Source: a virus | Length of the DNA: 56,162 bases | Strand: one strand, 5' to 3' | Virus record (IMG/VR): IMGVR_UViG_3300045988_083024 | Shown here: positions 10,128 to 52,783 of the stretch, in pieces | Layout: every line of letters starts with the position of its first letter | Position numbering within the stretch: the first letter of the stretch is position 1 | The notes under the pieces: model-generated | The model's input: only the letters and a program-made list of their open reading frames with translations | Database searches by the model: none | Told to the model about the DNA's origin: nothing | Position numbers and translations under genes: made by a program

Positions 10128-10631
10128 ATGGCTAATAAGATCGAGCGCAAATATCTTGCGCACTTCATTGATGCCTCTTTCGGTACTGGCAGTGCCACCC
10201 CGAACTACGTCCGTCTGGGTGCCGATCTGGAGGAATACAACCTCGATCTGAACCCGGACGTTGAAGTGTCGAAGAACATTTGGGGTGAAAGCACCATCAA
10301 GCACAACGGCTACGAGCCGCAGAGCGAGGTGGACCCCTACTATGCAGTGGAGGGCGATCCGCTGTATGAGAAGCTGGAAGCTATCGCAAATGGTCGTCTG
10401 ACCGGCGATGACTGCAAGACTACCGCTGTCGATGTTCTGCTGAATGACAAGGGTGTTGTCACTTGGGCATACCGTGAGGATGTCATGGTGGTTCCCACCA
10501 GCATGGGCGGCGATACCAGCGGCGTTCAGGTTCCGTTCAGCGTCTACTACTGCGGTAATCGTACCAAGGGTACTTTCGATGTGACCAAGAAAACCTTTAC
10601 CGCTACCGCAAGCACCGTGTCCGGCAAATAA
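10128..10631 (+). CDS. Major tail (tube) protein
   Basis: 167 aa, RBS AGGAGG, followed by a terminator-like hairpin and the chaperone genes. Confidence 0.65.
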   Translation: MANKIERKYLAHFIDASFGTGSATPNYVRLGADLEEYNLDLNPDVEVSKNIWGESTIKHNGYEPQSEVDPYYAVEGDPLYEKLEAIANGRLTGDDCKTTAVDVLLNDKGVVTWAYREDVMVVPTSMGGDTSGVQVPFSVYYCGNRTKGTFDVTKKTFTATASTVSGK

Positions 10632-10692: not shown

Positions 10693-10709
10693 TGTAAAGG
10701 AGATTCACT

Positions 10710-11192
10710 ATGTCTGATGAAATCAAGACCACCGAAACTATGGAAATCGTTGTCGATGACGGTATGCGGGATGTCCGCATCCGCAATCTGAAAGGTGAGC
10801 AGATTGGTCTGTTCAAGTTCCGGCCCACTGACATGGGCATTATTGACCGCTATAACAAGCTGGTCAAAGACTTTGATGCTATCACCGAGCCGCTGGCAGA
10901 TGTCAGCATCAAGGCTGATGGCACGGCGGAAAACGAACTGGACACCAGCAAGCTGAACGAGGCGGAGCAGCGTCTGTATGCCGCTTGCGATGAGATGTTC
11001 GGCGGTAACATGAGCGAGGCATTCTTTGGTAAGATGCACCCGTTTTCCCCTATCAACGGCGTGTTTTTCTGCGAAACCGCGATCTCTCAGGTTGGTAAGT
11101 TTATCGGCCAGCAGTTCGGTCAGGAACTGAAGAAGGTCAACACCCGCGTGGAACGCTACACGAAGAAGTACGCGGGCAAGGGCCGTGCATGA
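10710..11192 (+). CDS. Tail assembly chaperone
   Basis: Acidic 160-aa ORF between the tube and tape measure genes. Confidence 0.55.
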   Translation: MSDEIKTTETMEIVVDDGMRDVRIRNLKGEQIGLFKFRPTDMGIIDRYNKLVKDFDAITEPLADVSIKADGTAENELDTSKLNEAEQRLYAACDEMFGGNMSEAFFGKMHPFSPINGVFFCETAISQVGKFIGQQFGQELKKVNTRVERYTKKYAGKGRA

Positions 11193-11769: not shown

Positions 11770-14700
11770 ATGGCCGAACATTCTGACGGTTCTATCGTAA
11801 TTGATACCGAACTGGATCAATCCGGGTTTGAGGCGGGTAGCAAGGAACTGTTGCAAGCCATTCAATCCCTAACTTCTGAGATTAAACAGCTTAACGCGCA
11901 ATTCGGCTCTGCATTTGCCAACACCAGCAAGGCGGCAGATGATTCCAGTAGCCGGGTTCAGCAGCTGGAGGCTCAGGTAACACAGTTACAGTCGCAAGTG
12001 GACGGCCTGAACACTGCACTGGAAAACATGGAAAATCAGATGAACAGTGCGGAGGACAGTAATCTTTCCGGGGCATTTGATACGACTGCTGCCAAGCAGT
12101 CCGTGTCCGATCTCCAGAAAGACCTTGATTCTTTGACATCTGACCTTTCCAAATTGGAATCCTCGGCGGATAAAGCGATGGGCGTAACAACTACGCCTTT
12201 GGAACGCTTTAACGAGCTGGCGGATTCCATGCAGCAGCGAATTGACGATCTTTCGGATAAGCTGGAGGAACTTGCAGATTCTCAGGTTCCAACGGATGAT
12301 TATGCGTGGACTACGCAGGAAATCCAGAAAGCCGAAACCGAACTGGACAAGTTGATGGCGAAACAGGATAAGATGGATGCCACCGGGGTAAAGCATTCCT
12401 CCAAGGCATACCAGAATCTCCAGTACGACATTGACCAGACCAAGCGCAAGATCGAGGATTTGAGAGCTACACAGCAGATCCTCACCGATAACGGGGAGGA
12501 TTTTGTTTCGGGTGTGGATACCGAACAGTATGCCCAGTATTCCGCCCAGCTGGAAGATGTACAGGCCAAGTACGATGACCTTTGCGCTGAGGTTGATAAG
12601 TTCTTTGCTAAAAACACTTCCGTTTTCTCCGTATTGGGGAAAATGATCGGTTCTGCCTTTACTGCGGCAAAGGATACTGCTGTTGCCTGTATCCAGCGCA
12701 TTGCGGGCGAGGTCAAAGACCTTGCGGGCAGAAGCGTTTCGCTACTCGCGGATCAGGTGAAAAAGGCGGTATCGTCTTTTGTTGGGCTGAACAAGGGTTC
12801 TAAGTCGGCGAATGCAGGCTTTGGAACCAGCCTGAAAACTATTCTCAAGTATACATTTGGCATTCGTTCTCTGTTTGTGCTTGTGAACAAGCTGCGGGCG
12901 GCACTGGTGGCCGGATTCGGTAATCTGGCGCAGTATTCCAGCTCTACCAACAAGGCTATTTCGTCTATCACATCTGCTCTTACGCAGCTGAAAAACAGTC
13001 TGGCATCGGCGTTTGACCCGATTTTACAGGCAGCAGCCCCGGCCCTTACCTACCTTATTAGTAAGCTGGTAGAGGCCATTTCTTATATCGGGATGTTTAC
13101 GGCAGCACTGTCTGGGCAGAAAGTCTACAAAAAGGCAACCTCCATCCAAGAGGACTACGCCAAGTCGCTGGACAAGACCTCTAAATCCGCAAAGGATGCA
13201 AAGCGGCAGCTTGCCAGCTTTGATGAGCTGAATGTGCTGTCTGATAAGTCTACGAAAAAGGATGATGGGTCTGTTGATCCATCCCAGATGTTTGAAGAAG
13301 TCCCCATTGATACCAGTGTGACCGACTTTGTGGATCGTCTGAAAAAGGCTTTTGCCGATGGCGATTTCACCGGGCTGGGCAGGATCATTGGTGAAAAAAT
13401 CAATGCAGCTTTCCAGAGCATCAAGGACTTTATTGACTGGGATAACGTGGGCGGCACGATCACAAAATGGGTGAATGCGCTCTGTGATACCATCAATTCG
13501 ATGGTGGATACCATCGACTGGGATTTGATCGGCAGCACGTTTGCATCCGGCGTGAATACCATCGTCAACACGATGCACCTGTTGCTGACGGGCATCGACT
13601 GGGAAAACATCGGCAAGGCTATTGCAACGGGCCTCAATGCTGCCATTCGGGATATTGACTGGGCGAAACTCGGTCAGACCCTCGGCGAGTATTTTGAGGC
13701 AAAGTTGGATGTGCTACACGGTGTTATTACCAACTTCAACTGGCGCGGCCTCGGTGCAGCAATCGGTACTGCCCTTACGAACACCTTTGCAGCAATCAAC
13801 TGGGGCAAGGCGGGCGAAACTCTGTCCTCCTACGTCAAGGGGCTGCTGGACACGTTTAGTTCTGCCGTTGAAAATTTCGACTGGTTTGCACTGGGCGAGG
13901 ACATCCGAAAGTTCCTTGTCGGTATCGACTGGGGCGGTGTTGTTGGTAGCGCGGTAGGGGCGTTCGGCGCGGCTTGTGGTGCTATTGGCAGTCTGGTCAT
14001 TGGGTTCCTTAAAGAGCCTTGGGAAGAAGCTGTCAAGTGGTGGAAGGATACCGCTTACGAGGATGGACAGTTTAGCATTCAGGGGCTGTTTGAGGGTATC
14101 AAGAAAGCATTTTCTAATGTTGGCACATGGGTCATGGATAACATCTTCAAGCCCTTGTGGAACGGCATTTGCAGTGCGTTTGACATCCACTCGCCATCTA
14201 AGAAAATGGCCGAACTTGGCGGCTATATCATGGAAGGTCTGAAAAACGGCATCACGGGCGGTATTACCGCTGTCGTGAATGCGATAAAAGACCTCCCCGG
14301 CAACATCGTAACAAAGCTGAAATCCGTGAACTGGATTCAGCAGGGCAAGGACATCATTGGCAACATCTACAACGGATTTGTTGCGATGAAAGATAAGCTC
14401 CCCACCGCGATCAAGACTATCGGCGACAATGTGGTGACTAAGCTGAAAGGCATTGATTGGCTGGCAGCTGGTAAGGCCGTTATTGGGTTCATCTATAACG
14501 GCTTTGTCGCTCTCCAGACCAAGCTGCCGGACGCTCTGAAAACCATCGGAAACAACGCCGTCACCAAGCTAAAGGGAATCGACTGGCTGACGGCCGGTAA
14601 GGCTGTTATTGGATTCATCTATAACGGCTTTGTCGCTCTCCAGACGAAGATTCCCGCCGCACTGAAAACTATCGGCGATTCGGCTAAGAAGAAGTTTACG

Positions 14701-17160
14701 GACATCGACTGGCTGGGCGTTGGTAAGAACGTCATTCTCGGCATCTATAACGGCATCCAGAACACGCTGAAACGGCTGTCCGAGGCTGCCGGAAAGGCAT
14801 CCAACTGGCTGATTAACGCATTCAAGGATGCGCTGGGTATCCACTCTCCGTCTACTGAGGGCGCAGAACTGGGTTACTGGTTAGATGCTGGTGTGGCGCA
14901 AGGCATAGCCAACAATTCCGGGCTGGCGGAGGACGCGGCTGGTGATTTAGGTTTGGCGGTCTACACAGGTGCGGATGACGCATTGGACGGCAAGGGCACA
15001 CTGCTCGGCGAGGGCTTTGTGGATGAAACTGTCGATGCACTGAAAAACAACATGAATCGCATCTCTGATGCCCTTTCCAGCGGTGACGGTTTAACCAACA
15101 TCAAGGGCATCATTGACGCGGTGCAGTCCGGTGACTGGGCTACCGTAGCGAAAAACGTTGCGCTGGGCCTGTTCAACAGCATGGATAAGAATTTCCGTAC
15201 CAACGTCATCGGGTTTGTCGCTGATTCTCTGGAGGCTCTGAATAAGGGCTATGAGGAACAGGGATATGTCGGCATGGCAAAGGCTGCGTGGAATATCATC
15301 TCCGGGCTGAAAAACAACCTGTCCACCTCCGGCAATACCAATATTCTGGTAGAGGCTGGCAAGGGCATGGCGAACAGCATCACGGACGGCGTGAACGGTG
15401 GTCTGCCTGATCTCTGGTCGCTGATCTCCAGCATTCCCGGAAAGATTCTGGAACTGCTGTCGGGCGGCTTTGGGCAGCTGAAACAGTGGGGCGGTCAGTT
15501 CATTGACTGGCTCACGAACCTGTTCAAGGGCGGTTCTGGAAACATTCAGACCAACATGGGCACTACGCTCCAGAATATCGGCAACACGTTCAAGAATTTC
15601 TTTAACGGAACTTCTCAAAACGGCAGCTCGTTCATTCAGAATTTGGGGAACACGCTCAAGAATGGGCTGGGCAATATCCAGAATAATTCCTCTGGGCTGC
15701 TGAACGGCATCAAGAATCTGTTTAGCAACGGATTCAACAACATCGCATCCAATGCGGGAAATCTCTGGAACTCCGTCAAGGGATTTTTCAGCAATGGATT
15801 GTCCGGCGTGGCATCTAATGCGGGGTCGATGCTCTCCAACATCGGCTCGGTGTTCAGCAACGGATTCTCTAGCATAGCATCCGGCGCATCGGGTCTGTTC
15901 TCTAAACTCGGATCGCTATTCAGCGGTGGGCTGTCTGGCATCGCATCTACTGTCGGCGGCGGGCTGTCCAGCATTGCCGGGTCTGTGGGTTCTACCATCG
16001 GCGGCATTGCCTCCACCGTAGGCGGCGGGCTGTCTGGTCTGGTAACATCCATCGGCGCGGGCATCGGTTCTATCGGTGCAACGGTCAGCGGCGGTCTGGG
16101 TGCGCTGGCATCCGGCGCAGCTGGTGTGGCTGGCACAATCGGAACAACACTCTCCGGCGCGGTAGCTACGGCGGGTACTGCCCTCGGCGGTCTGGGTACT
16201 ACGCTGGCCGGACTTGCCACGGCGGGCGGGCCTGTCGGCCTTGCAATCGCTGGTGTGGGCGCATTAGGCGCGGGTCTAGTGACTGCCTATAACAAGTGTG
16301 ACTGGTTCCGCGATGGCGTTAATAACGCTTTTAACGCCATCAAGAATACCGTTACTAATGTTTGCAAGGGCGTTGGTAATGTGGTCAGCGGAATCTGGGA
16401 TGGCGCAAAAAATGTGGTTTCCGGCGCGGTCAATGTCGGCAAAAACATCATTACGGGCATCGGTACAGGCATTAAAAATGTCGCATCCGGCCTATGGAAT
16501 GGTGTGAAAAAAGTCGGCTCTGGCATCGTGAACGGCTTTAAGTCTTTCTTTGGCATCCACTCTCCCTCTCGCCTGATGCGGGATGAGATCGGCGAAATGC
16601 TGCCTCCCGGTATCGAAAACGGCATCGTTGCGGCTACTCCTGATCTTATCAAGGGTACGCAGCAGCAGATGGAGAAAGTTGTCGATGCAGCACAGTCCAC
16701 GCTGGCGCAGGCTGACACAAGCACCATCGGCTCCGAAACGCCTACTCTGGATTACACCGGGAATGTTGTTTCGGACAAGCTGGATGGTATGCTGTCCGAT
16801 TTCTCTAACAAGATCGAGGACAGTTTTACTACCCTGATTGACCGCCTGAACAGTATCGCAGACCGGGTGGCATTTGTCACCCCACAGGCTGCAACTGGCA
16901 CGGTCATGCCGTATGATGTCGCCGCGAAAGCGACAAACGGCGGCACGGCTACACTGGGCGATACCATCACATCGTCCAACGAGGAACTGGGTTCTGTCGT
17001 GATCCAGTCCGTTACCAACGCCACCTCCGCGATTGTTGATGCAATTCAGAAGTACAGCGGTACTACTGTAAATCTGGATGCAAACGGTATCACGGATATG
17101 GTGATTAAGGAAATCAACCGCAGAACTCGTGCGCAGGGCAGTTCCCCGCTGATCGGGTAA
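11770..17160 (+). CDS. Tape measure protein
   Basis: 1796 aa. Coiled-coil N-terminus, three IHSPS motifs, internal ~40-aa tandem repeats, and a Gly/Ser/Ala-rich hydrophobic segment. Confidence 0.9.
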   Translation: MAEHSDGSIVIDTELDQSGFEAGSKELLQAIQSLTSEIKQLNAQFGSAFANTSKAADDSSSRVQQLEAQVTQLQSQVDGLNTALENMENQMNSAEDSNLSGAFDTTAAKQSVSDLQKDLDSLTSDLSKLESSADKAMGVTTTPLERFNELADSMQQRIDDLSDKLEELADSQVPTDDYAWTTQEIQKAETELDKLMAKQDKMDATGVKHSSKAYQNLQYDIDQTKRKIEDLRATQQILTDNGEDFVSGVDTEQYAQYSAQLEDVQAKYDDLCAEVDKFFAKNTSVFSVLGKMIGSAFTAAKDTAVACIQRIAGEVKDLAGRSVSLLADQVKKAVSSFVGLNKGSKSANAGFGTSLKTILKYTFGIRSLFVLVNKLRAALVAGFGNLAQYSSSTNKAISSITSALTQLKNSLASAFDPILQAAAPALTYLISKLVEAISYIGMFTAALSGQKVYKKATSIQEDYAKSLDKTSKSAKDAKRQLASFDELNVLSDKSTKKDDGSVDPSQMFEEVPIDTSVTDFVDRLKKAFADGDFTGLGRIIGEKINAAFQSIKDFIDWDNVGGTITKWVNALCDTINSMVDTIDWDLIGSTFASGVNTIVNTMHLLLTGIDWENIGKAIATGLNAAIRDIDWAKLGQTLGEYFEAKLDVLHGVITNFNWRGLGAAIGTALTNTFAAINWGKAGETLSSYVKGLLDTFSSAVENFDWFALGEDIRKFLVGIDWGGVVGSAVGAFGAACGAIGSLVIGFLKEPWEEAVKWWKDTAYEDGQFSIQGLFEGIKKAFSNVGTWVMDNIFKPLWNGICSAFDIHSPSKKMAELGGYIMEGLKNGITGGITAVVNAIKDLPGNIVTKLKSVNWIQQGKDIIGNIYNGFVAMKDKLPTAIKTIGDNVVTKLKGIDWLAAGKAVIGFIYNGFVALQTKLPDALKTIGNNAVTKLKGIDWLTAGKAVIGFIYNGFVALQTKIPAALKTIGDSAKKKFTDIDWLGVGKNVILGIYNGIQNTLKRLSEAAGKASNWLINAFKDALGIHSPSTEGAELGYWLDAGVAQGIANNSGLAEDAAGDLGLAVYTGADDALDGKGTLLGEGFVDETVDALKNNMNRISDALSSGDGLTNIKGIIDAVQSGDWATVAKNVALGLFNSMDKNFRTNVIGFVADSLEALNKGYEEQGYVGMAKAAWNIISGLKNNLSTSGNTNILVEAGKGMANSITDGVNGGLPDLWSLISSIPGKILELLSGGFGQLKQWGGQFIDWLTNLFKGGSGNIQTNMGTTLQNIGNTFKNFFNGTSQNGSSFIQNLGNTLKNGLGNIQNNSSGLLNGIKNLFSNGFNNIASNAGNLWNSVKGFFSNGLSGVASNAGSMLSNIGSVFSNGFSSIASGASGLFSKLGSLFSGGLSGIASTVGGGLSSIAGSVGSTIGGIASTVGGGLSGLVTSIGAGIGSIGATVSGGLGALASGAAGVAGTIGTTLSGAVATAGTALGGLGTTLAGLATAGGPVGLAIAGVGALGAGLVTAYNKCDWFRDGVNNAFNAIKNTVTNVCKGVGNVVSGIWDGAKNVVSGAVNVGKNIITGIGTGIKNVASGLWNGVKKVGSGIVNGFKSFFGIHSPSRLMRDEIGEMLPPGIENGIVAATPDLIKGTQQQMEKVVDAAQSTLAQADTSTIGSETPTLDYTGNVVSDKLDGMLSDFSNKIEDSFTTLIDRLNSIADRVAFVTPQAATGTVMPYDVAAKATNGGTATLGDTITSSNEELGSVVIQSVTNATSAIVDAIQKYSGTTVNLDANGITDMVIKEINRRTRAQGSSPLIG

Positions 17161-17179: not shown

Positions 17180-17554
17180 ATGGCGGTTCCTATGTTTGTC
17201 GTGAACGGTCACGACTATGCAAAGCTGATTACTGAGCTGAAACCCTCCCGGAACGATGTTGATTCTGACGGTAGCGGACGCAATCTGCTGGACGGTCTGA
17301 TGTACCGTTCGCGGCTTGCGACAAAGCGCAAGTGGTCGGTCACGTTTGGCCGTCTGGACGCTAAGACCATGATGCAGCTGGAGAATGATATGTACAGTGG
17401 TAAGGACTATATCTCTATCACCCTGCTGGATGCCCGTGTCAATCGCGGCGTTATCAGCAGCTATTATTTCTCCACCATCAATGAAGGTGTGCAGCGCAGC
17501 ATCAATGGCGAAACGTACTACGATGGCGTGACGTTTGACATCATCGAGAGGTGA
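17180..17554 (+). CDS. Distal tail component
   Basis: 124 aa, immediately after the tape measure gene. Confidence 0.45.
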   Translation: MAVPMFVVNGHDYAKLITELKPSRNDVDSDGSGRNLLDGLMYRSRLATKRKWSVTFGRLDAKTMMQLENDMYSGKDYISITLLDARVNRGVISSYYFSTINEGVQRSINGETYYDGVTFDIIER

Positions 17555-17558
17555 CGGG

Positions 17559-19193
17559 ATGAGAGGTAGGTCGAACCTCTGGGCGAAACTGGCGGCGCGA
17601 GGCCGCTTTCGCACAGAAGCAAAGCTCGTTTCGGGCGGCAAGGATTACACCACCATCTCCGCCCCGATAATCGTGCGAAAGTTGATGGCACAGCCGATGG
17701 CGGTAGGTAGCTGCATCGCGGCTACACTGTCTGTGTCGGTGCTGACCCCGGATCGAATCGAAAGCCCGGTCAAGATCATGGCCCGGATCACTGACGATGA
17801 GGCATACAGCGAATGGGCCAGCTTTGGCACGTTTTTCATCAATCAGCGTGATGATTCCCAGCACAATGGTCTGGTAACGCTGGATTGCTATGACGCTATG
17901 CTCATGGCAAATACTCCGTATCTGACCAGCGCGGATGATGCGTTGGTGTGGCCCCGGCCTATGATTGATGTTGTAGAGGACATCGCCGCCCGATTAGAGG
18001 TCGGAATTGACCCCCGCACAAAGATCAATACCGGGGCGGATTACATGATTCCGAAACCGTCTGCGGACAAAACAATGCAATCTTTACTGGTTGATATTGC
18101 GATCTGTCACGGCGGCAACTGGATCATAACCGAGGACAATTTGCTCCGGCTTATCCCTCTGACATCGGCAGCGGATGAAACATACCGCCTGATTGACGAG
18201 GATTTCAACGTCATCAAGGCAGCAGACGGTAGCACCATCGTTTACAAAGACGGCGGGGCTACCGTTGTTTCTGCCGATGATTCCGGCGGCGAAACCCCGG
18301 AAAGCCCCATCGTGGCATCCTATCATGTCACGGATGAACATGGTAACTCGATCATCACCCCGCAGGGCTATTATCTGGCATGGTCTAACGGCGAGGTCGT
18401 ACCCGCCGATGGTGTGCTGAATGTGCCCGTGGTTTGCGGCAAGCTTACGACTGGTACATCTGTCACCCTGTCTGGCATCTCTGCTACGGCGGGCAATGAC
18501 ACGCTGGGAGCCGGTAACAACTCCGGGTATGTGCTGGATATTTCTTCTGACTGTCTAACACAGAACATCGTAAATGACCTGTATGAGCGGCTGAAAGGCA
18601 TCACATACAGCCCATTTACAGCATCTAAGACGATCTTTGACCCGGCGGCAGAGCTGGGCGATAAGGTCATCATCGGCAATGCCGTGCGAAGTGTTCTGTG
18701 CGTTGAAACGCTCACCTTTGATATAGCTTTCCGCGCCGATCTCAACGCCCCGAACAGCGAGGAGTTGAGCGTGGAATATCCGTACAAAAAGGAATACCAG
18801 AAGTTGCAGCAGTCGCTGGCATCCCTCGACAAGTCTGTGAACAAGTCGATTGATGACCTGACCGATAAGGTCAACAGCGGCAGCGGTGAAACTGGCACTC
18901 TGGCGGCACAGTTAGAGGCTGAGATCATCCGGGCTGGGCAGGCAGAAATTGCGCTGTCGGATCAGATCAAGGCCGAAAAGGATCGGGCCGAGAAAGCCGA
19001 AAAGCAGATTCTGGAGGACGTGGCTGCTGGCTACACCACAAAGAGCGAGCTGTCGGATGCACAGACTGTGGTAGATCAGAAGTTTACCGATGTGCATACC
19101 GAAATTGAAGGGATCAAATCGAAGCTGGACATCATGGGGCCTTATAAAATGGTTGGTGGACGGCTCTGTTTTGTGACAAAGAAAAAAGCCTGA
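17559..19193 (+). CDS. Tail tip / tail-associated protein
   Basis: About 544 aa after the distal tail gene. C-terminal coiled-coil (EAEIIRAGQAEIALSDQIKAEKDRAEKAEKQ). Confidence 0.55.
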   Translation: MRGRSNLWAKLAARGRFRTEAKLVSGGKDYTTISAPIIVRKLMAQPMAVGSCIAATLSVSVLTPDRIESPVKIMARITDDEAYSEWASFGTFFINQRDDSQHNGLVTLDCYDAMLMANTPYLTSADDALVWPRPMIDVVEDIAARLEVGIDPRTKINTGADYMIPKPSADKTMQSLLVDIAICHGGNWIITEDNLLRLIPLTSAADETYRLIDEDFNVIKAADGSTIVYKDGGATVVSADDSGGETPESPIVASYHVTDEHGNSIITPQGYYLAWSNGEVVPADGVLNVPVVCGKLTTGTSVTLSGISATAGNDTLGAGNNSGYVLDISSDCLTQNIVNDLYERLKGITYSPFTASKTIFDPAAELGDKVIIGNAVRSVLCVETLTFDIAFRADLNAPNSEELSVEYPYKKEYQKLQQSLASLDKSVNKSIDDLTDKVNSGSGETGTLAAQLEAEIIRAGQAEIALSDQIKAEKDRAEKAEKQILEDVAAGYTTKSELSDAQTVVDQKFTDVHTEIEGIKSKLDIMGPYKMVGGRLCFVTKKKA

Positions 19194-19267: not shown

Positions 19268-19762
19268 ATGGCAGATAAACGAATCCAAGATTTTGCAACG
19301 CTGGCAGAGGCGGCGGACGATGACCTGATTCTGGTATCGTCCAGTGGTGAAACCTATAACATCAAGGTTTCCACCCTGAAAGCCGCTGTGTCTGCGGCAT
19401 TGCAGTCTACTCTGGGCAGTCTTTCTACGGGCAAGGCGGATAAAACTACCGTTAATACTCTGGATCAGAATTTCAAGAACTTTGTCAAGGACACCAACAC
19501 CGCGCTGGCTGGTAAGGCAGACACATCTTCCGTGTCCACCCTTAATACCACGGTAGAAGGGCTGAAAAAGACCAAAGCTGATGCGTCCACCGTAAATGCC
19601 CTGAACGGCACTGTGGAAGGGCTGAACGGCACTGTGGAAGGGCTGAAAACGTCCAAGGCAGACACATCTTCCGTCACCAAGTTACAGCAGAGCATTGACG
19701 GGCTGGGCCTTGTTATCAAGGACGGCAAGCTCTGCATCAAGATCAAGAAGGAGGTTTCCTAA
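19268..19762 (+). CDS. Tail fibre shaft protein with heptad-like repeats
   Basis: Repeats of the form TxxxLxxTVEGLKxxKAD. Contains a perfect 21-bp tandem duplication. Confidence 0.5.
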   Translation: MADKRIQDFATLAEAADDDLILVSSSGETYNIKVSTLKAAVSAALQSTLGSLSTGKADKTTVNTLDQNFKNFVKDTNTALAGKADTSSVSTLNTTVEGLKKTKADASTVNALNGTVEGLNGTVEGLKTSKADTSSVTKLQQSIDGLGLVIKDGKLCIKIKKEVS

Positions 19763-21003
19763 TGGCTACTAAGAAAAATGCTGCTGCGGCTCAAGCCGCT
19801 ACCGAGGACGAAGCCATGACCACGGCAGAGGTCAGCACTCAGGCGGATGAGGTCGCAGAACCTATTCTGCTGGATAACACATTCAAGGATACCATGAACC
19901 AGACCAATGCACTGCTGGCTGCTATCGCAGGTCAGAACTACCCGATCACCAGCTGGAAAGCCGTGCAGAACATCGTCCGGCTGGGCCTTGCTCCTAGCGT
20001 GTTCTCTGTGGGCGATCTGTTCAAGGTCAGCAAGGGTTCCGAAACCCTGACCTTTGAGGTCGCTGGTTTCGATAGTGAAACTCTGGTGGACAAAACCAAG
20101 AAACACAGTATGCAGCTCCATCTGCTGAACGTCTACAAGCAGATGCAGTGCGACAACACCGAGGCCCTGTATTATACCAAGGACGGTCTGGCCGCTGGCA
20201 TTTACCACTTCACCCTGTTGCCCGGTTATGATACCACCTATGGCGGCGGTTCTACGTTCCAGTTCCAGCTGACCAAGCCCGTTCCCGCTGGTGGCATTCT
20301 GATGTTCCCGTGGGGCTGGAATACGCAGGCCAGCACTACCAAGATCAGCAGCTACACCAAGGTGACGGACACGGATGCAATCGAAACCGTGCCCGTTTCT
20401 CTGGGCGCGGGCGGCACTGATCTGGGCACGGCAGACGGCAAGACCGAGAACATGAACCATACGCACCGCATCCGCTACGGCTCCAACAACTGGAGCGAAT
20501 CTGCAATCCGTCAGTGGCTCAACTCTGATGGCGCGGCTGGTACGTTCTGGGTTCCCAAGACCGTTTTTGACCGTCCTCCCACATGGAATAGCTCTATGAC
20601 GGGCTGGATGAACGGCATGGATGCTGACTTCCTCGAAGTCATCGCTCCGGTCAAGCTGACTACCGCCCGGAACAATGTCAACGAGAACGGCGGCAGCGAT
20701 GTGACCATCGACAAGTTCTATTTCCCCTCCCGCCCGAACCTGTACATGGGCAAGGAAAACGGCATTGACGAAGGCCCCGAATGGCAGCGTTATTCCGCTT
20801 ACAGCGACAAGGATACCGTCAATACTGGCGCGGATTCTGCCCGCATCAAGCGGCTGAACGGCAATCCGCAGTGGTACTGGATCAGAACGCCGGGCACTGG
20901 CAGCGCGAACTATGTGCGCAGTGTCAACTCTGACGGTTCTCTGAACACCAACATTGCGAACAGCGGCAATGGCGGCGTGGCCCCGGATTGTACCATCGCT
21001 TAA
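19762..21003 (+). CDS. DGR target protein 1 (putative receptor-binding protein with a C-type-lectin-like variable C-terminus)
   Basis: Last tail gene. The C-terminus WIRTPGTGSANYVRSVNSDGSLNTNIANSGNGGVAPDC is encoded by VR1. Confidence 0.8.
   Translation: MATKKNAAAAQAATEDEAMTTAEVSTQADEVAEPILLDNTFKDTMNQTNALLAAIAGQNYPITSWKAVQNIVRLGLAPSVFSVGDLFKVSKGSETLTFEVAGFDSETLVDKTKKHSMQLHLLNVYKQMQCDNTEALYYTKDGLAAGIYHFTLLPGYDTTYGGGSTFQFQLTKPVPAGGILMFPWGWNTQASTTKISSYTKVTDTDAIETVPVSLGAGGTDLGTADGKTENMNHTHRIRYGSNNWSESAIRQWLNSDGAAGTFWVPKTVFDRPPTWNSSMTGWMNGMDADFLEVIAPVKLTTARNNVNENGGSDVTIDKFYFPSRPNLYMGKENGIDEGPEWQRYSAYSDKDTVNTGADSARIKRLNGNPQWYWIRTPGTGSANYVRSVNSDGSLNTNIANSGNGGVAPDCTIA
20888..20991 (+). repeat. DGR variable repeat 1 (VR1)
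   Basis: 104 nt align gap-free to TR 21522-21625. All 8 mismatches are at TR adenines. Confidence 0.9.
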
Positions 21004-21013
21004 TCTTACCAAT

Positions 21014-21031
21014 CCGCGCCGACAGGCGCGG
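21014..21031 (+). promoter_or_regulatory. Hairpin downstream of VR1 (ccgcgcc-GACA-ggcgcgg)
   Basis: 7-bp GC stem with a 4-nt GACA loop, 22 nt after VR1. A similar hairpin with the same loop follows VR2. Confidence 0.7.
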
Positions 21032-21067
21032 ACATTCAGTTAATCTAACGTAAAGGATGAATCTATT

Positions 21068-21631
21068 ATGGCAGTAGTCGCAGGAAAACGTAAAGACGGA
21101 GAACTGAAATTCCTTACCACCAGCGCACAGCTGGCCAAGTACACGATGGATATTTGTGGCAACGAAAAAAGTTTTCCGAAAAGATACCGCTGGTGTTTTA
21201 TCGGAAAAATCGTTGATGCCGCGATTGAAGTCTTTGTGGTGGCGTTCAGAGCGAACAAAGTCTACGTTGAACCCGGCGACATGGATGCTGCTATGCGGCG
21301 TTTCAATCTCCAGTCCGAATCCATTGAAGCCTCCTACCAGCTCGAAGCACTGGCGAATCTGGCATACATGATGTTCGGACTGGAAGAAAGCCGCATCGAG
21401 TTCTGGACGAAACTCATCAATGAGAGCCGCAACAAGCTGAGAAGCTGGCGAAAGTCCGATAAAGAACGATTCATCGACCCTTATGATACAAATAACGGGG
21501 TAACGGCTATGATGCAGCCTCCGCCGAACACTGGCAACGCGAACAATGTGCGCAATGTCAACTCTGACGGTTCTCTGAACAACAACAATGCGAACAACGG
21601 CAATGGCGGCGTGGCCCCGGATTGTGAGTAA
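21068..21631 (+). CDS. avd: DGR accessory variability determinant (Avd); the ORF stays open through the TR
   Basis: Helical basic protein between target and RT (KYTMDICGNEKSFPKRYRW..., LEALANLAYMMF). The Avd-like part probably ends near 21480. Confidence 0.7.
   Translation: MAVVAGKRKDGELKFLTTSAQLAKYTMDICGNEKSFPKRYRWCFIGKIVDAAIEVFVVAFRANKVYVEPGDMDAAMRRFNLQSESIEASYQLEALANLAYMMFGLEESRIEFWTKLINESRNKLRSWRKSDKERFIDPYDTNNGVTAMMQPPPNTGNANNVRNVNSDGSLNNNNANNGNGGVAPDCE
21522..21625 (+). repeat. DGR template repeat (TR)
   Basis: Asn-codon rich (aac/aat), 29 adenines. Matches VR1 and VR2 except at adenines, with one T>G exception in VR2. Confidence 0.9.
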
Positions 21632-21789
21632 TGCGAGAAAGTAGTAAGTTGTGCCTATTCTGAAAAGGCCCTCCGAACCGAGTGCGCTCACACAAGGAGC
21701 CGTTATCCCAGCCGATAAAGGCGAAAACAGAACGCCGATGCTGTCAGCTTTAAGAGCTGGTACAGCTATACACGGCGGATTTTTTATGT
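21522..21789 (+). ncRNA. DGR RNA (TR plus spacer region up to the RT start)
   Basis: 164-nt non-coding spacer between TR and RT. It contains an interrupted hairpin at 21740-21766 (gctgtcagct/agctg..acagc). Confidence 0.55.
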
Positions 21790-22884
21790 ATGGACGTAAA
21801 AACCAAAGTTTGCAGTTTTGAATCACTCTATAAAGCAATGATGATCTGCAAGTCAAATGTGCTGTGGAAAGACAGCGTAGCGGGATGGGTCAGTAATGGC
21901 TTGTCCAACTGCCTGAAACTGCACGATGACTTGTTGACGGGCAAGTACAAAATCAGTGCGTACAGCCGTTTCGTGATCTATGAGCCGAAACGCCGCGATG
22001 TCACAAGCACCCGGTTCAAGGATCGGGTTTTCCAGCGCAGCCTGTGCGACAACTATCTAACGGCAGAGGTATCCCGTTCCTTTATATGGGATAACGCCGC
22101 CTGCATGAACGACAAGGGCACACAGTTTGCACGGAAAAGGCTGAAATGTCATCTGCAACGCTACTGGCGCAAGTACGGATTGAACGGCTACACGCTGAAA
22201 ATGGACTTGCACAATTTCTTCGGCAGCACACCGCATTCCGTGGTGAAAGCCGCCATCGCAAAGCGCGTATCTGATCCGTGGGCATATAGCGAGGTTTGCC
22301 GGATCATAGACAGTTTTGACCACGGGCCTGATCCTACGGTGGGCATGGGGCTGGGCAGTCAGGTAACACAGCTAAGTCAATTAGCTGTACTGGATGACCT
22401 AGACCATTTCATCAAGGAGCAGCTTCACATCAAGTTCTATGTGCGGTACATGGATGATCTCATCCTATTGCACCCGGATAAGGCGTACTTGCGGTATTGC
22501 TGGATGGAGATAGAAAAGCGGCTGCAAGCTCTGGGGCTTACGTTGAATACCCGCAAAACTCAGATAGCACCCATCAAACAGCCCATCCGTTTTCTGGGCT
22601 TCTCGTTCCGCCTGACCGAGACCGGCAAGGTAGTGCAAAAGCTACTGCCGGAAAAGGTCAGCAGAGAACGCCGCAAGCTGCGAAAACTGGTCGGGCTGGC
22701 ACGGGCGGGCATTATGACACGGGAACACGTTGATGACTGTTTCCAAAGCTGGAAAGCCCACGCCGAGCAGGGCGATTGCTACCATCTGATTTGCGAGATG
22801 ACCGTTTACTACTTTAAGTTATGGGAGGAAAGCTATGGCATTCCAGTATGTTCCGCTGGCAAAGCAGGCAATCGAGCTGCGTAA
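21790..22884 (+). CDS. DGR reverse transcriptase
   Basis: YEPKRRDV, GLGSQVTQLSQ and the YMDD box (FYVRYMDDLILL). 364 aa, directly after the TR. Confidence 0.9.
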   Translation: MDVKTKVCSFESLYKAMMICKSNVLWKDSVAGWVSNGLSNCLKLHDDLLTGKYKISAYSRFVIYEPKRRDVTSTRFKDRVFQRSLCDNYLTAEVSRSFIWDNAACMNDKGTQFARKRLKCHLQRYWRKYGLNGYTLKMDLHNFFGSTPHSVVKAAIAKRVSDPWAYSEVCRIIDSFDHGPDPTVGMGLGSQVTQLSQLAVLDDLDHFIKEQLHIKFYVRYMDDLILLHPDKAYLRYCWMEIEKRLQALGLTLNTRKTQIAPIKQPIRFLGFSFRLTETGKVVQKLLPEKVSRERRKLRKLVGLARAGIMTREHVDDCFQSWKAHAEQGDCYHLICEMTVYYFKLWEESYGIPVCSAGKAGNRAA

Positions 22885-23165: not shown

Positions 23166-23198
23166 GCCCCCGCGCCGTGCTGAAAGGAGGTGCATAGT

Positions 23199-23855
23199 AT
23201 GGCAATTATCGACTTTGCACGGGATGACCCGCGCATGATTACTGCCAATTTTGGGCTGGCCGAGTTCCAGTGCCCGCCTACCTGTGGCTGCAATGCCCAG
23301 CTGATTGATGATGACCTCATCAAGCGGCTCCAGACCATCCGCGATAAACTGGGCGGCAAGATCAAGATTACCAGCGGATACCGCTGCATCAAGCACAATA
23401 AGCACGTTGGCGGCGGCAAAGCAAGCAAACATCTATATGGTGTTGCTGCTGACTGGCGGATGCAGGATCGTAGCATCAACCCGGTAGCACTGGGCATTGT
23501 GGCTACACGGTATTTTGGAGCCGTGGGCATCTACTGGTATGGCAATTCCGCCTTTGTCCATACCGATACCCGCAAGGGCAAGGCAACATGGCTCTGCACC
23601 GCTAAGGGCAAGTACGTTTATACGAGTTACCGTTCTTTCATTCTGCCCACGATCAAAAAGGGCTGTACGGGAGATGTCAACAAGTCCGCAACTCAGATGA
23701 TCCAGCGGCTGCTGGGCATCCCTGTGGATGGTAACTTTGGTATCGGTACAGAAAACGCCCTGCGGAAAGCTCAGGCGGCGCATGGGCTGACCGTGGATGG
23801 AATTTGTGGCCCCGCCAGCTGGAGAGCGATTTCCGGGGCGGATAAGTACCTGTAA
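23199..23855 (+). CDS. Endolysin: M15-type peptidase plus peptidoglycan-binding domain
   Basis: ITSGYRC..HN..VGG...SKHLYGVAADW, then a C-terminal PG-binding repeat (LLGIPVDGNFGIGTENALRKAQAAHGLTVDGICG). AGGAGG RBS. Confidence 0.8.
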   Translation: MAIIDFARDDPRMITANFGLAEFQCPPTCGCNAQLIDDDLIKRLQTIRDKLGGKIKITSGYRCIKHNKHVGGGKASKHLYGVAADWRMQDRSINPVALGIVATRYFGAVGIYWYGNSAFVHTDTRKGKATWLCTAKGKYVYTSYRSFILPTIKKGCTGDVNKSATQMIQRLLGIPVDGNFGIGTENALRKAQAAHGLTVDGICGPASWRAISGADKYL

Positions 23856-24785: not shown

Positions 24786-25030
24786 CCTAACATTCCGCCT
24801 AACATTTCGCCTAACGTCTAACGTCCGTGTTAGAATCGCGTCTAACAGCTAACATTTTTGTTATGACGTGTGTTAGGTGCGCTTTTTAACGGTGAATCGT
24901 TTTATTGTTTGCACCCTAACATTCTAACATCATTTTGTAAAAAAATTCAAATCTTACTAATTAGGGAAAACACCTAATGCCTGTGATGCCTAAATTCGTA
25001 TATCTATACGCGCGGGCGCGTGAGATGTTA
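24786..25030. repeat. Iteron-like block A: 10 copies of YCTAACR (both orientations) plus a conserved CCTAAT/CGCGC-palindrome tail
   Basis: Copies at 24786, 24798, 24810, 24817, 24828(inv), 24841, 24848, 24871(inv), 24915, 24923. The tail 24959-25030 is about 75% identical to 52692-52764. Confidence 0.75.
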
Positions 25031-26095: not shown

Positions 26096-26665
26096 ATGGA
26101 TTACGAAAGCATTCAGAATCTTCACGCGGGCGACCACTTCAACTTTAAGGGGCTGGAGTGGGTAGTCCTCGACCCGGACAAGGAGGGCGGCGTTCTCGCC
26201 ATCACCGCTGACCTCTGGGCTGAGGATGTGCCGTTCAGTCAGGAGTATTTCGAGGGCTGCAACGACTGGCGCAAGTCCACTATCCGCGAGAAAGTTCGCG
26301 GGCTGATGCACAAGATCGGCGTGGATAATCTGCTGCCGCACATTGTCGATCTGGTGGCCGATAACGGCGATAAGCTGTACGGCACGATGGAGGAAATGGT
26401 TTTCCTGCTGACCTGTGACGAGTATCGCAAATACCGCGATGTGATCCCCAAGTACCGCCGCTGGATTTGGACGTGTACCCCGTGGACTACAACGTACACT
26501 GGCTACGCGAGCTATGTGCGCCTTGTCAGCGCTGACGGTTCTCTGTACAACAACCTTGCGAACTACGGCATTGGCGGCGTGGCCCCGGCTTGCATCTTCA
26601 ATCCCCGGAATCTCAAATTGCGCCGACAGGCGCAGTTCGTGGAATCGCCTACACATGACGATTGA
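26096..26665 (+). CDS. DGR target protein 2 (small, 189 aa, no signal peptide)
   Basis: WTCTPWTTTYTGYASYVRLVSADGSLYNNLANYGIGGVAPAC is encoded by VR2. Upstream NDWRKSTIREKV and FLLTCDEY resemble target 1 (NNWSESAIRQWL, FYFPSRPN). Confidence 0.8.
   Translation: MDYESIQNLHAGDHFNFKGLEWVVLDPDKEGGVLAITADLWAEDVPFSQEYFEGCNDWRKSTIREKVRGLMHKIGVDNLLPHIVDLVADNGDKLYGTMEEMVFLLTCDEYRKYRDVIPKYRRWIWTCTPWTTTYTGYASYVRLVSADGSLYNNLANYGIGGVAPACIFNPRNLKLRRQAQFVESPTHDD
26493..26592 (+). repeat. DGR variable repeat 2 (VR2)
   Basis: 100 nt align gap-free to TR 21525-21624 with 14 mismatches. 13 are at TR adenines; one is T>G at TR 21563. Confidence 0.85.
26619..26634 (+). promoter_or_regulatory. Hairpin downstream of VR2 (tgcgcc-GACA-ggcgca)
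   Basis: 6-bp stem with the same GACA loop as at 21014-21031, 26 nt after VR2, inside the 3' end of the target ORF. Confidence 0.65.
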
Positions 26666-26680
26666 GCGGAGGATCAGCAC

Positions 26681-27241
26681 ATGAGAGATACATTTTGGAA
26701 AGTGATCGTCACCGTGGCCCTGATCGCGGTTCTGACCTTTGGTGTGGGTCTGTTCATTGTACAGGGCGTGAAGAATACTGCCATTTCCTACGAGGAACAG
26801 GTAGCCGCTGCCCAGTCTGATATTCAGGTGCAGGAAAAACGCCGCTCAGACCTCATCCCGAATCTGGTTGAAACGGTCAAGGCATACGACAAGCACGAAT
26901 ACGATACTCTTATGACCGTTATCGCGGCGCGTGGTAGCAGTTCCGATGCTGCCGTGTCTGAGATTACCACCCAGATTGCAGCCGTGGCAGAGGCTTACCC
27001 GGAACTGCAATCCGCTGACAACTATCGGGAGCTGATGAACGAGCTGGCAGTCACCGAAAATCTGATTGCGAATTACCGCTCTGACTATAACCGCACGGTC
27101 AAGAGTTATCGGCAATATGTTCGCCGTTTTCCCAATAGCACGTTTTTGAGCCTGACCGGGTATGAGGTACAAAGCTATGCGCTCTTATCGTTCAACGTAT
27201 CGGAGGATGCTCCGTCTGTCGGAAACCTCTTTGGAGATTAA
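26681..27241 (+). CDS. lemA: LemA-family membrane protein
   Basis: N-terminal TM, then QVQEKRRSDLIPNLVETVKAYDKHE and AEAYPELQSADNYRELMNEL..NYRSDYN. Confidence 0.8.
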   Translation: MRDTFWKVIVTVALIAVLTFGVGLFIVQGVKNTAISYEEQVAAAQSDIQVQEKRRSDLIPNLVETVKAYDKHEYDTLMTVIAARGSSSDAAVSEITTQIAAVAEAYPELQSADNYRELMNELAVTENLIANYRSDYNRTVKSYRQYVRRFPNSTFLSLTGYEVQSYALLSFNVSEDAPSVGNLFGD

Positions 27242-27965
27242 CGGAAGCGAGATCACGTTCCGGGAGATTCTGGCAAGTGCCGTTATTGTGCTGGCGATGC
27301 TGATTCTGGGCACGGTCATTTCTGGCCGCATCAAGCAGATGGCAATGGAGCGCAAGCAGGAATATACCACCGCGATTGATATTTCTTCTGATGATCGGTT
27401 TGCCTACGGGCTGCGGACGGACGTTGGACGGGCATTCTGTTACGGTACACTGTCCGCCGTGGACACGGTATCGGAGGATCGGATCGGCGGGCCGTATATG
27501 TACATTTACTGCGAGGAACAGCACTACAATATGCACACCCGCACGGTAGCGCATACTGATGGCAAGGGTCACACCTATACTACCACGGAAATCTATTATT
27601 CGTGGGATTATGCGGGTTCTGATACATGGCATTCGCAGACTGTGCATTTTCTGGGCAAGGATTTTGACTACGGGCAAATAGATATGCCCAGTAGCGAGTA
27701 TCTGACCACAAAATACAGGGGTAGCAGCGTTCGATTTGAATACTATATCCGGCCTGTGGAGTACACGGGCACGATGTATGCCACGCTCACCGGGCACACG
27801 ATTCAGGATGCCGCGTTCCATGATGGAACTGACATTGACCAGACGCGGGAACTCCTGATGTCCGGCGCAGATGGCTGGGCAGTCATATTCTGGATAGTCT
27901 GGATCATTCTCACAGCGGCGGCTGTGTTCGGCTTCTGTACGCTTGAAAACGACTGGCTGAAATGA
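27177..27965 (+). CDS. Two-TM membrane protein with a central beta-rich domain (LemA partner; possibly GIDE-like)
   Basis: TM near each end (AVIVLAMLILGTVI; WAVIFWIVWIILTAAAVFGF). RBS GAGGT precedes ATG 27177. Overlaps the lemA 3' end. Confidence 0.55.
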   Translation: MRSYRSTYRRMLRLSETSLEINGSEITFREILASAVIVLAMLILGTVISGRIKQMAMERKQEYTTAIDISSDDRFAYGLRTDVGRAFCYGTLSAVDTVSEDRIGGPYMYIYCEEQHYNMHTRTVAHTDGKGHTYTTTEIYYSWDYAGSDTWHSQTVHFLGKDFDYGQIDMPSSEYLTTKYRGSSVRFEYYIRPVEYTGTMYATLTGHTIQDAAFHDGTDIDQTRELLMSGADGWAVIFWIVWIILTAAAVFGFCTLENDWLK

Positions 27966-33186: not shown

Positions 33187-33578
33187 CCGCAAAAGATTTG
33201 CACGTTGGGCAGACCGTCTACGTTTATTATTGTGGGTACGATCCGCGCCGGGCTAAAGAGTTTGGTCTTAAACCCGCTACGATTAAAAGCATAGGCCGGA
33301 AGTGGTTCTATTTGGATGAGATTGGCTATCCGCTATGCTACCGATTCAGCATTGAAACGGGCGCGATTGATGGGCATGGGTATTCTAGCGAATACAAAGC
33401 TATCCTTGATCCTGCCAAGTATTATGACGCGATAGATCGCAGCATAGTAAATGATGTTACACGACAGATCGGCGCACTACGAAACTGCTCTATGGATCAG
33501 ATACGAGAGATCGCCCGTATTCTGGGTATCGAGAACAAATTCTGTGAGCGTAAATACAAAGCCAAAGAAAACGCTTGA
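33183..33578 (+). CDS. Hypothetical protein
   Basis: About 131 aa; the ATGA start overlaps the previous stop. Confidence 0.45.
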   Translation: MTAKDLHVGQTVYVYYCGYDPRRAKEFGLKPATIKSIGRKWFYLDEIGYPLCYRFSIETGAIDGHGYSSEYKAILDPAKYYDAIDRSIVNDVTRQIGALRNCSMDQIREIARILGIENKFCERKYKAKENA

Positions 33579-33617
33579 CTTTTTGTGTGGTCAATAATAA
33601 TATAGTTGTACACACAA
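33575..33617 (+). promoter_or_regulatory. Promoter TTGACT-17-TAATAT with TTGT-N4-ACAA type palindromes
   Basis: -35 at 33575-80 and -10 at 33598-603. ttgtgtggtcaa (33583) lies in the spacer; ttgtacacacaa (33606) lies just downstream. Confidence 0.55.
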
Positions 33618-33903: not shown

Positions 33904-33977
33904 TTGTCCGCACAAAAAATATTTTGAAAAACTATTGACTTTTTGTGCGGACAAGAATATACTTACTGTGCGGACAA
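33904..33977 (+). promoter_or_regulatory. Promoter TTGACT-17-TATACT with three copies of a 12-bp palindrome
   Basis: ttgtccgcacaa (33904), ttgtgcggacaa (33943, in the spacer), ctgtgcggacaa (33966). -35 at 33935-40, -10 at 33958-63. Confidence 0.6.
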
Positions 33978-52506: not shown

Positions 52507-52783
52507 GAGCAGAAATTTTATCTAACAAAAAACCTAACATCTGCCTAACATTCTAACAAAACCGTTAGGGCGTGTTCTAACACCTAACAAAAATGTTAGA
52601 TGCAGATGTTAGCCATTTTTTGCTGTTTCATCGTCAAAATCTAAGTTTCTAACATTCTAACATATTCCGTTAAACTTTAGAAAAAATAGGCAATTAGGGA
52701 AAATCGTTAATACCTAATACGCCTAATTCTATATGTCTATACACGCGCACGCGCGAGTGTTAGGACGTTTGGCCGGAATACAG
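52507..52783. repeat. Iteron-like block B: 12 copies of YCTAACR (both orientations) around an AT-rich core; candidate replication origin
   Basis: Copies at 52521, 52533, 52544, 52552, 52563(inv), 52576, 52583, 52594(inv), 52607(inv), 52648, 52656, 52758(inv). The tail is paralogous to 24959-25030. Confidence 0.7.

Follow-up and report, generated by a model that had tools for sequence, protein, structure and literature searches.

A two-target diversity-generating retroelement in an uncultured phage genome

The IMG/VR virus record IMGVR_UViG_3300045988_083024, a stretch of 56,162 nucleotides that we analyzed as a whole and refer to here as the window, almost certainly carries a complete, phage-encoded diversity-generating retroelement (DGR) with two target genes. 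The element consists of a template repeat (TR), a variable repeat (VR) in each of the two targets (VR1 and VR2), an avd gene, a spacer RNA, and a gene for a reverse transcriptase (RT) (Table 1). An original prediction had placed a complete DGR at 19762-22884, and all of the DGR parts it called for were found, but the system is larger than that interval and also takes in the second target with VR2, the hairpins that follow both VRs, and a structured spacer RNA. The system is a well-known one and the locus is a textbook example of it, with nothing that changes the current understanding of DGRs. Its added interest lies in the corroboration of a known RNA architecture, in the assignment of the RT-2 RNA motif to the spacer role, and in the question of what the small target does.

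The TR aligned to VR1 without gaps, and the homology between the two broke off sharply at both ends. All eight mismatches fell on TR adenines (21527, 21528, 21537, 21545, 21555, 21582, 21588, and 21597), an outcome that has a hypergeometric probability of 1.7e-5 given 29 adenines in 104 positions. The original prediction had given this TR with its coordinates, length, and adenine count, together with exactly these eight mismatches and none at another base, and realignment reproduced all of these details. A scan of the whole window revealed one further TR copy, at 26490-26593, with 17 mismatches, 13 at adenine sites and 4 at other bases. Because three of these four non-adenine mismatches sit at the extreme ends of the interval, the true VR2 spans approximately 26495-26592; within these limits, 13 of 14 mismatches to the TR are at adenines and a single internal one is not. 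The differences are thus adenine specific rather than spread evenly over the four TR bases. Toward the 3' end, the GC-rich block GGCGGCGTGGCCCCGG proved identical in all three copies, as had been predicted.

Every one of the 29 TR adenines occupies the first or second position of a codon in the VR frame. The description of the TR as built largely of AAC and AAT codons was too strong as a count, since there are nine of the former and four of the latter (13 of 34 codons), but these codons do hold 26 of the 29 adenines. None of the possible changes from adenine to any other base yields a stop codon. Given this placement of the adenines, mostly in AAC and AAT codons, the TR gives access to up to ~10^17 protein variants without a stop.

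The evidence that this type of cassette is active comes from assembled relatives and protein clusters rather than from reads. Five IMG/VR contigs (L001 to L005) carry RTs that are 97 to 99% identical to the window RT. Compared with the window, their flanking genes differ by 3 to 4.5% and their VR1 by 12 to 22%; the TR differs at 0 to 1 of 104 positions and the spacer at 0 to 1 of 164. When seven distinct VR alleles from five phages were compared with the TR of the same phage, 93 of 96 mismatches lay at adenines, with 28 of the 29 TR adenine sites hit and with G (49), T (24), and C (20) as the replacement bases. Rare non-adenine variants of the TR are co-transferred from TR to VR: a rare TR T>C in L004 is also found in the VR1 of L004, and the TR T>A of L001 to L003 is also found in their VR1 and VR2.

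Both targets belong to large protein clusters at 90% identity, of 1498 and 896 sequences, and we sampled 15 members from each. Among the sampled members, column entropy was 0.98 bits in VR1 compared to 0.08 outside it, and 0.97 bits in VR2 compared to 0.07 outside it, so that the VRs exceed their surroundings more than 12-fold. The hypervariable residues coincide precisely with AAY codons. A contig scan with the RT alone returned no relatives, but a scan with an alignment of the large target did. Nine more diverged cassettes from Clostridia metagenome-assembled genomes (MAGs), with RTs 45 to 65% identical, also display the adenine-specific pattern (for example, 16/16 and 15/15), and the large target has relatives in MAGs of Ruminococcus, Oscillospiraceae, Acutalibacteraceae, and Christensenellaceae. 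With VRs hypervariable only at the sites of TR adenines and a conserved TR, the earlier reading of the locus as adenine-specific mutagenic retrohoming is supported.

Two members of these clusters deserve separate mention. VR1 of the window keeps one TR adenine unmutated (TR 21621, VR1 20987, residue 409), which gives Asp and the sequence APDC. At the equivalent of 20987, C is present in each of the 15 sampled cluster-mates and in the five relatives alike, which gives APAC, and the Ala is near-invariant in the family; this difference places 21621 inside the copied region. The APDC allele may have been written recently and is possibly less fit. The other is P0260, a 169-aa member of the small-target cluster encoded on a 2.7-kb contig, which joins the N-terminal part and VR of the small target to the C-terminal ending of the large one (…GVAPACTI-A). 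It is either a VR2/VR1 recombinant or an assembly chimera across the shared repeat.

The RT open reading frame (ORF) and its YMDD motif were recovered where they had been predicted. The protein matches Pfam RVT_1 and, at 306 bits, phrog_1423. Its best PDB match is 8ub7_A (E = 3.8e-28, 102 bits), and the aligned fragment of that chain matches Brt from Bordetella phage BPP-1 at 100% identity; the next-best PDB matches, to retron, group II, and Cas-RT chains, are at E = 1e-7 or weaker, the first of them with 34 bits. Over the aligned region the window RT is ~30% identical to Brt, with Brt R74 aligned to R, I181 to L, and Q187 to Q. Brt R74 and I181 are reportedly named in a study of adenine mutagenesis. 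The closest annotated phage RTs (35 to 65% identity) come from human-gut phages.

Other classes of RT were considered and rejected on their scores. The group II intron RT/maturase model TIGR04416 reached 78 bits against a cut-off of 300, and an Rfam scan of 19 to 28 kb of the window found no group II intron RNA. The retron St85 model reached 27 bits against a cut-off of 235. Among models of defense RTs (DRT) and abortive-infection (Abi) RTs, Drt3a scored 49 against a cut-off of 200, and the PADLOC DRT models scored no more than 67 bits, the level of a generic RT domain. By these scores the RT does not side with group II intron or retron RTs, the result that would have counted against the original prediction, and Brt is its best solved relative. 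As judged from its sequence, the RT belongs to the DGR RTs, with the catalytic YMDD intact.

The TR is separated from the RT gene by a spacer that matches the Rfam motif RT-2 (RF03077) at 21629-21800 over the full model (32.5 bits, E = 1e-4 over 9 kb, model positions 1 to 222). The same motif is present directly 5' of the RT in five of eight diverged cassettes. One of these, the L092 spacer (6501-6662), scores 42.3 bits and is above the RF03077 cut-off, while the other four (L113, L098, L089, and L094) score 27 to 34 bits. No RT-2 was found in nine small-target loci that were scanned at Rfam gathering thresholds, loci that mostly have no RT within 8 kb. Weinberg et al. (2017) described RT-2 as an orphan motif associated with RT genes; they located RT-10 in the spacer of BPP-1, with the speculation that further RT motifs might serve in other DGRs. 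In the searchable literature RT-10 alone is explicitly tied to a DGR, and we found no paper that makes this link for RT-2. On the basis of these matches, the spacer between TR and RT in this DGR lineage probably corresponds to RT-2.

With a covariance model derived from six seeds, the element was recovered in 19 cassettes, which were realigned before covariation was scored. This realignment was needed, as RNAalifold on a plain MAFFT alignment gave only two helices. In the spacer helices 93.9% of cells pair, compared to 73.7% in shuffles, and double-sided changes are seen at 14 of 19 pairs. Covariation scored 0.594, compared to 0.212 in shuffles, none of 500 of which reached that value, and slid controls scored at most 0.112. 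With 0 to 1 substitutions in 164 nt among the close relatives, the spacer is under strong purifying selection. On one contig from an Oscillospiraceae MAG (L117), the spacer model matched the plus strand at 6287-6442, 3' of the target, and a tblastn match to the RT lies on the minus strand at 6451-7485; either an inversion of the RT with respect to the TR-spacer unit or a misassembly of the contig may account for this.

The spacer is also predicted to form two long-range duplexes, both of which fall outside the 5' boundary of RF03077. Helix 1 of the covariance model corresponds to the duplex with the TR 3' end, with 92.9% of cells paired and a compensatory change in two pairs. The duplex with the segment just upstream of the TR occurs at the homologous place in 14 of 14 cassettes examined, and its covariation score was 0.736 versus 0.289 in shuffles (0 of 500 reached it), with slid controls at 0.22 or less. 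Its register was picked by best complementarity and coincides with a conserved TAGGGTA motif. We used a fixed-register search for this purpose, because RNAduplex z-scores against shuffles were uninformative, the energies being inflated by long internal loops. The sequence CACAAGGA is invariant in 11 to 12 lineage members.

Beginning 21 to 22 nt past the end of each VR is a hairpin with the common core GCGCC-GACA-GGCGC, and no such inverted repeat lies 3' of the TR. Both hairpins agree with the consensus for DGR target recognition, namely, a GC stem of 7 to 10 bp with a 4-nt GRNA loop at 4 to 34 bp from the VR (PMC3240598). Within the family of the small target, the VR2 hairpin has either a TTGCGCC/GGCGCAA or a TTGCACC/GGTGCAA stem, along with one G·T intermediate, a compensatory change that reads as LRRQAQ versus LHRQVQ at the protein level. 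By analogy, the GACA-loop hairpins would serve target recognition.

The Avd-like ORF predicted 5' of the RT is backed by a match to phrog_3206, annotated as "Avd protein of DGR" (E = 6e-15, residues 3 to 136). Seven of 11 Avd homologs from the lineage, 37 to 46% identical, match Pfam bAvd (PF22296), and a search of PDB sequences with the Avd-lineage profile found nothing.

Taken together, these parts suggest a mechanism in which a transcript of the avd 3' end, the TR, and the 164-nt spacer would assemble with the RT and Avd and fold into a ribonucleoprotein. Here the spacer would pair both with the TR end (TGTGAG:CTCACA) and with the upstream segment (GGGGTAACGGC:GCCGTTATCCC), and the two duplexes would hold the TR 3' end in position for reverse transcription primed in cis. 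Copying by the RT would be faithful for all TR bases but adenine, opposite which any base could be inserted, and the mutagenized cDNA would replace VR1 at the C-terminal tip of the 413-aa protein or VR2 in the 189-aa protein. Targeting would rely on the shared GC-rich 3' block and on the GACA-loop hairpin after each VR; as this hairpin follows the VRs and is absent from the TR, information would move only from TR to VR. The priming chemistry and the roles given here to the helices and hairpins are argued by analogy with BPP-1, and the targets would presumably bind ligands.

The large target matches DUF6273 (PF19789) over residues 233 to 412 (E = 2.4e-17, 63.8 bits, cut-off 23.5) and phrog_19280 (E = 1.8e-61). 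Its AlphaFold2 model, with a predicted local distance difference test (pLDDT) score of 81.5, had Foldseek matches to phage DUF6273 proteins down to E = 2e-25 and resembles the N-terminal DUF6273 domain of 9qa6, an IgA protease from Thomasclavelia. The position of the gene after the tape-measure and tail genes suggests that the protein may form the receptor-binding tip.

The small target lies 5 kb downstream, after the lysis cassette. It matches phrog_9958 (E = 5e-51) and scores 16.3 bits against DUF6273, below the same cut-off of 23.5; among its 1867 homologs many are already annotated with PF19789, and its VR region aligns to the large target (E = 9e-10). The alignment of its family is hypervariable in the VR block only. 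The AlphaFold model of this protein was poor (pLDDT 45) and was not used for a fold search. There is no obvious signal peptide and no tail-attachment domain in its sequence. That the small target is a portable accessory DUF6273 module and not a virion receptor-binding protein is a tentative idea, and one we rate as unlikely. If it were true, a tail-tip adhesin would be diversified by the DGR together with a second function, such as lysogenic conversion, superinfection exclusion, or the binding of host structures or mucus.

Directly 3' of the small target is a LemA-family gene (26681-27241, E = 1.8e-33), which is overlapped by a 267-aa ORF without a family match (27162-27965). This neighborhood is kept only in close relatives; at ~75 other phage loci the small-target homolog has unrelated neighbors and usually no RT within 8 kb. 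On one unrelated phage contig (L036), a tRNA and a D12-methyl RNA (RF02950, 91 bits) lie ~2 kb 3' of the small-target homolog, at 10292-10363 and 10703-10766.

TABLE 1 Features of the DGR and its surroundings in the window
Feature	Coordinates	Strand	Size	Remarks
Tape measure gene	11770-17160		1796 aa	Upstream of large target
Tail protein gene	17535-19193			Upstream of large target
Large target gene	19762-21003	+	413 aa	Last tail-module gene; C-terminal DUF6273
VR1	20888-20991	+		Residues 376-410 of large target; ungapped alignment to TR
VR1 hairpin	21013-21032	+		TCCGCGCC-GACA-GGCGCGGA; 8-bp perfect inverted repeat, 4-nt loop, -17.4 kcal/mol
avd	21068-21631	+	187 aa	Conserved domain at approximately residues 1-136
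Upstream strand GGGGTAACGGC	21497-21507	+		Just 5' of TR; pairs with GCCGTTATCCC at 21699-21709
TR	21522-21625	+	104 nt	29 A, 30 C, 28 G, 17 T
GC-rich block GGCGGCGTGGCCCCGG	21605-21620	+		Identical in TR, VR1, and VR2; 3' homology like that of an initiation of mutagenic homing (IMH) element
TR 3'-end strand TGTGAG	21623-21628	+		Pairs with CTCACA at 21687-21692; RNAalifold prediction; putative template:primer duplex
Spacer RNA	21626-21789	+	164 nt	Between TR and RT
Spacer core CTCACA-CAAGGA-GCCGTTATCCC	21687-21709	+		Both pairing strands flank an invariant CAAGGA
Spacer helices	21711-13/21720-22; 21733-37/21773-77; 21740-44/21762-66; 21745-49/21755-59			
DGR RT	21790-22884	+	364 aa	YMDD at 22447-22458; LGSQVTQ motif at 22351-22371
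Small target gene	26096-26665	+	189 aa	Essentially a standalone DUF6273-like domain
VR2	26495-26592	+		Internal in small target, 24 codons before the stop
VR2 hairpin	26616-26637	+		AATTGCGCC-GACA-GGCGCAGTT; -14.6 kcal/mol; inside coding sequence

Several observations weigh against reading the locus as a complete and working DGR with two targets. A Foldseek search of the PDB with the whole large target retrieved neither Mtd nor TvpA, and its matches to C-type lectins were too weak to count; hhalign likewise detected no similarity between the target profile and the single BPP-1 Mtd sequence. The window Avd itself has no Pfam match, and hhalign found no similarity between its profile and the single BPP-1 Avd sequence. 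In the RT, the Brt motif IGSLTSQ is aligned to LGSQVTQ, with T in place of S, and the 32.5 bits of the spacer are under the RF03077 gathering score of 40. The usual stop codon of avd has been lost, its ORF continuing in the VR frame across the entire TR until 21629-21631, and the internal non-adenine mismatch of VR2 sets T at TR 21563 against G at VR2 26531. Finally, diversification at adenine sites is seen in assembled sequences of the relatives, from which ongoing activity in this genome itself is presumed.

The points concerning avd and VR2 could mean that a real DGR is now inactive here, its VR/TR pattern a fossil in a decaying cassette, which we consider distinctly unlikely. The unmutated APDC of VR1, set against APAC in 15 of 15 sampled cluster-mates, would fit such decay, and some related Faecalibacterium phages are without a read-level DGR signal (PMC11792537). 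The mismatch in VR2 also looks as if this repeat had gone unwritten since a mutation of the TR: position 21563 is polymorphic among the relatives, with A in L001 to L003, and VR2 was probably last written from an A-bearing TR, before the TR A-to-T change that is already present in VR1. VR1, however, equals the current TR at this site and so was written after the change, and the RT, its YMDD, the Avd domain, the TR, the spacer, and both hairpins are all intact, the spacer under purifying selection. Read-through of avd occurs in the window and in L001 to L005 only, while 12 other lineage members stop 120 to 167 nt before the TR end; in the three of these that we inspected (L098, L107, and L109) the stop falls inside the upstream-duplex motif (T)AGGGTA(A/G). 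Yet all five relatives that share the read-through have VR1 alleles that differ at adenine sites, so diversification continued after the read-through arose. The read-through adds a tail of ~50 aa with the unmutated VR peptide at its end. BPP-1 Avd keeps activity when it is fused at its C terminus (Avd-Fae; preprint 10.1101/2023.10.23.563531), and together with the diversifying VR1 of the relatives this suggests that the Avd extension is probably tolerated. The TR-encoded tail, peculiar to this phage group, might even have a role of its own.

That VR1 alone is diversified, with VR2 a passenger pseudo-target that is no longer rewritten, strikes us as very improbable. VR2 does have four non-adenine mismatches in the 104-nt frame and a shorter 5' homology, and it lies 5 kb off in a nonstructural neighborhood beside LemA. 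But its entropy of 0.97 bits versus 0.07 in the flanks is concentrated at AAY codons within a 90% cluster, the VR2 of L001 holds the T>A variant of that phage's own TR, and the GC block and GACA hairpin are both kept, the latter by compensatory change within coding sequence. Multiple and nonadjacent targets are, moreover, common in phage DGRs (PMC5758913). We give practically no credence to the suggestion that there is no DGR at all, only paralogous repeats homogenized by recombination or gene conversion next to a group II, retron, or DRT/Abi RT. Subthreshold NCBIfam and PADLOC matches to group II, retron, and DRT models arise through the common RT domain, and the chimera-like P0260 hints at VR recombination or misassembly. 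Against this stand the adenine specificity of 93 of 96 mismatches, which rules out simple gene conversion; the scores far under the group II, retron, and DRT cut-offs, along with the absence of group II intron RNA from the Rfam scan; and Brt as by far the best solved relative, with Avd, spacer RNA, and VR hairpins in canonical order.

The layout of this DGR has a close counterpart in the mtd-avd-TR-Sp-brt cassette of BPP-1. The order of target, avd, TR, spacer (Sp), RT, two small ORFs, and endolysin is the same, Brt is the nearest solved RT, and the TR and VR differ only at adenines in both. In each system a hairpin comes after a GC-rich 3' block, its 8-bp GC stem capped by a 4-nt GRNA loop, and the spacer RNA pairs with the TR 3' end and with a segment 5' of the TR. 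The duplexes predicted in the window match the geometry of the TR:Sp and avd:Sp ("cPRT Stop") duplexes in the BPP-1 cryo-electron microscopy structure. The two systems differ in that the window target is a DUF6273 protein without detectable similarity to Mtd, that a second, nonadjacent target is present, and that avd reads through the TR. In addition, the spacer matches Rfam RT-2 whereas that of BPP-1 is RT-10, the TR/VR length is 104 nt rather than 134 nt, and in place of Bordetella the host is probably a gut bacterium of the Clostridia. The recurrence of the BPP-1 RNA architecture, with strong covariation, in a distant lineage of Firmicutes phages corroborates that architecture, and the target hairpin has been kept by compensatory changes even within a coding sequence.

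Further relatives are found among gut Clostridia phages and their DGRs. The Faecalibacterium phages Lelie/Toutatis and CP11 have been described as having both a large and a small DUF6273 target, and the Roseburia phage Shimadzu as having two targets (PMC11792537). For DGR targets of gut Clostridia phages, a C-lectin-like fold has been predicted with the VR on a surface beta-hairpin (PMC10743442). As a group these DGRs (Lelie/Toutatis, CP11, Shimadzu, and nd4/nd12) resemble that of the window in having one TR with a large and a small DUF6273 target, in the position of the VR at the C-terminal end of the DUF6273 domain, and in their human-gut origin, and their RTs are the nearest annotated phage relatives of the window RT, at 35 to 44% identity. 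They are not identical in arrangement: Lelie has avd, TR, RT, and then a target with an internal VR, in contrast to the target, avd, TR, and RT of the window, and the "tentaclins" of nd4/nd12 have an N-terminal lectin domain followed by Ig domains, an architecture that differs from that of the window target. Lelie orf29 and orf47 were tested as homologs of the small target, and neither was homologous. A compact cassette with ~10^17 variants and a natural series of alleles could serve DGR-based protein engineering.

The window carries a 119-nt perfect direct terminal repeat at 1-119 and 56044-56162. Given this repeat, the window is probably a complete phage genome of ~56,043 bp, either circularly assembled or terminally redundant. 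It encodes a terminase, portal, DNA polymerase, primase-helicase, two helicases, and a thymidylate-synthase-like protein; it contains no tRNA, and no integrase was seen among the ORFs scanned. The phage is an uncultured human-gut phage that probably infects Clostridia, with a host probably in the Oscillospirales. A megablast search of the cassette against 50,697 deposited phage records gave no nucleotide matches. The ORFs that lead up to the RT are, in order, the tape measure, tail genes, a 164-aa fiber-like ORF, the 413-aa target, and the 187-aa ORF, and 3' of the RT come two small ORFs, an M15 endolysin (23190-23855), and a holin.

Repeats of three kinds were also observed outside the DGR. 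The tape measure ORF contains several in-frame tandem repeat families at 13431-16057, with periods of 126, 81, and 66 nt. A separate 66-nt element is present in two copies, at 24959-25024 and 52692-52757, that share 73% identity (AATTAGGGAAAA…TATACGCGCGGGCGCGTGAG); the first copy is intergenic, 3' of the lysis genes, and may have a regulatory role. The third is a 32-nt repeat, AAAACGCTTGACTTTTTGTGTGGTCAATAATA, at 33568-33599 and 33928-33959, with its copies 360 nt apart and 84% identical. It includes TTGAC and, from its sequence, looks like a promoter or operator.

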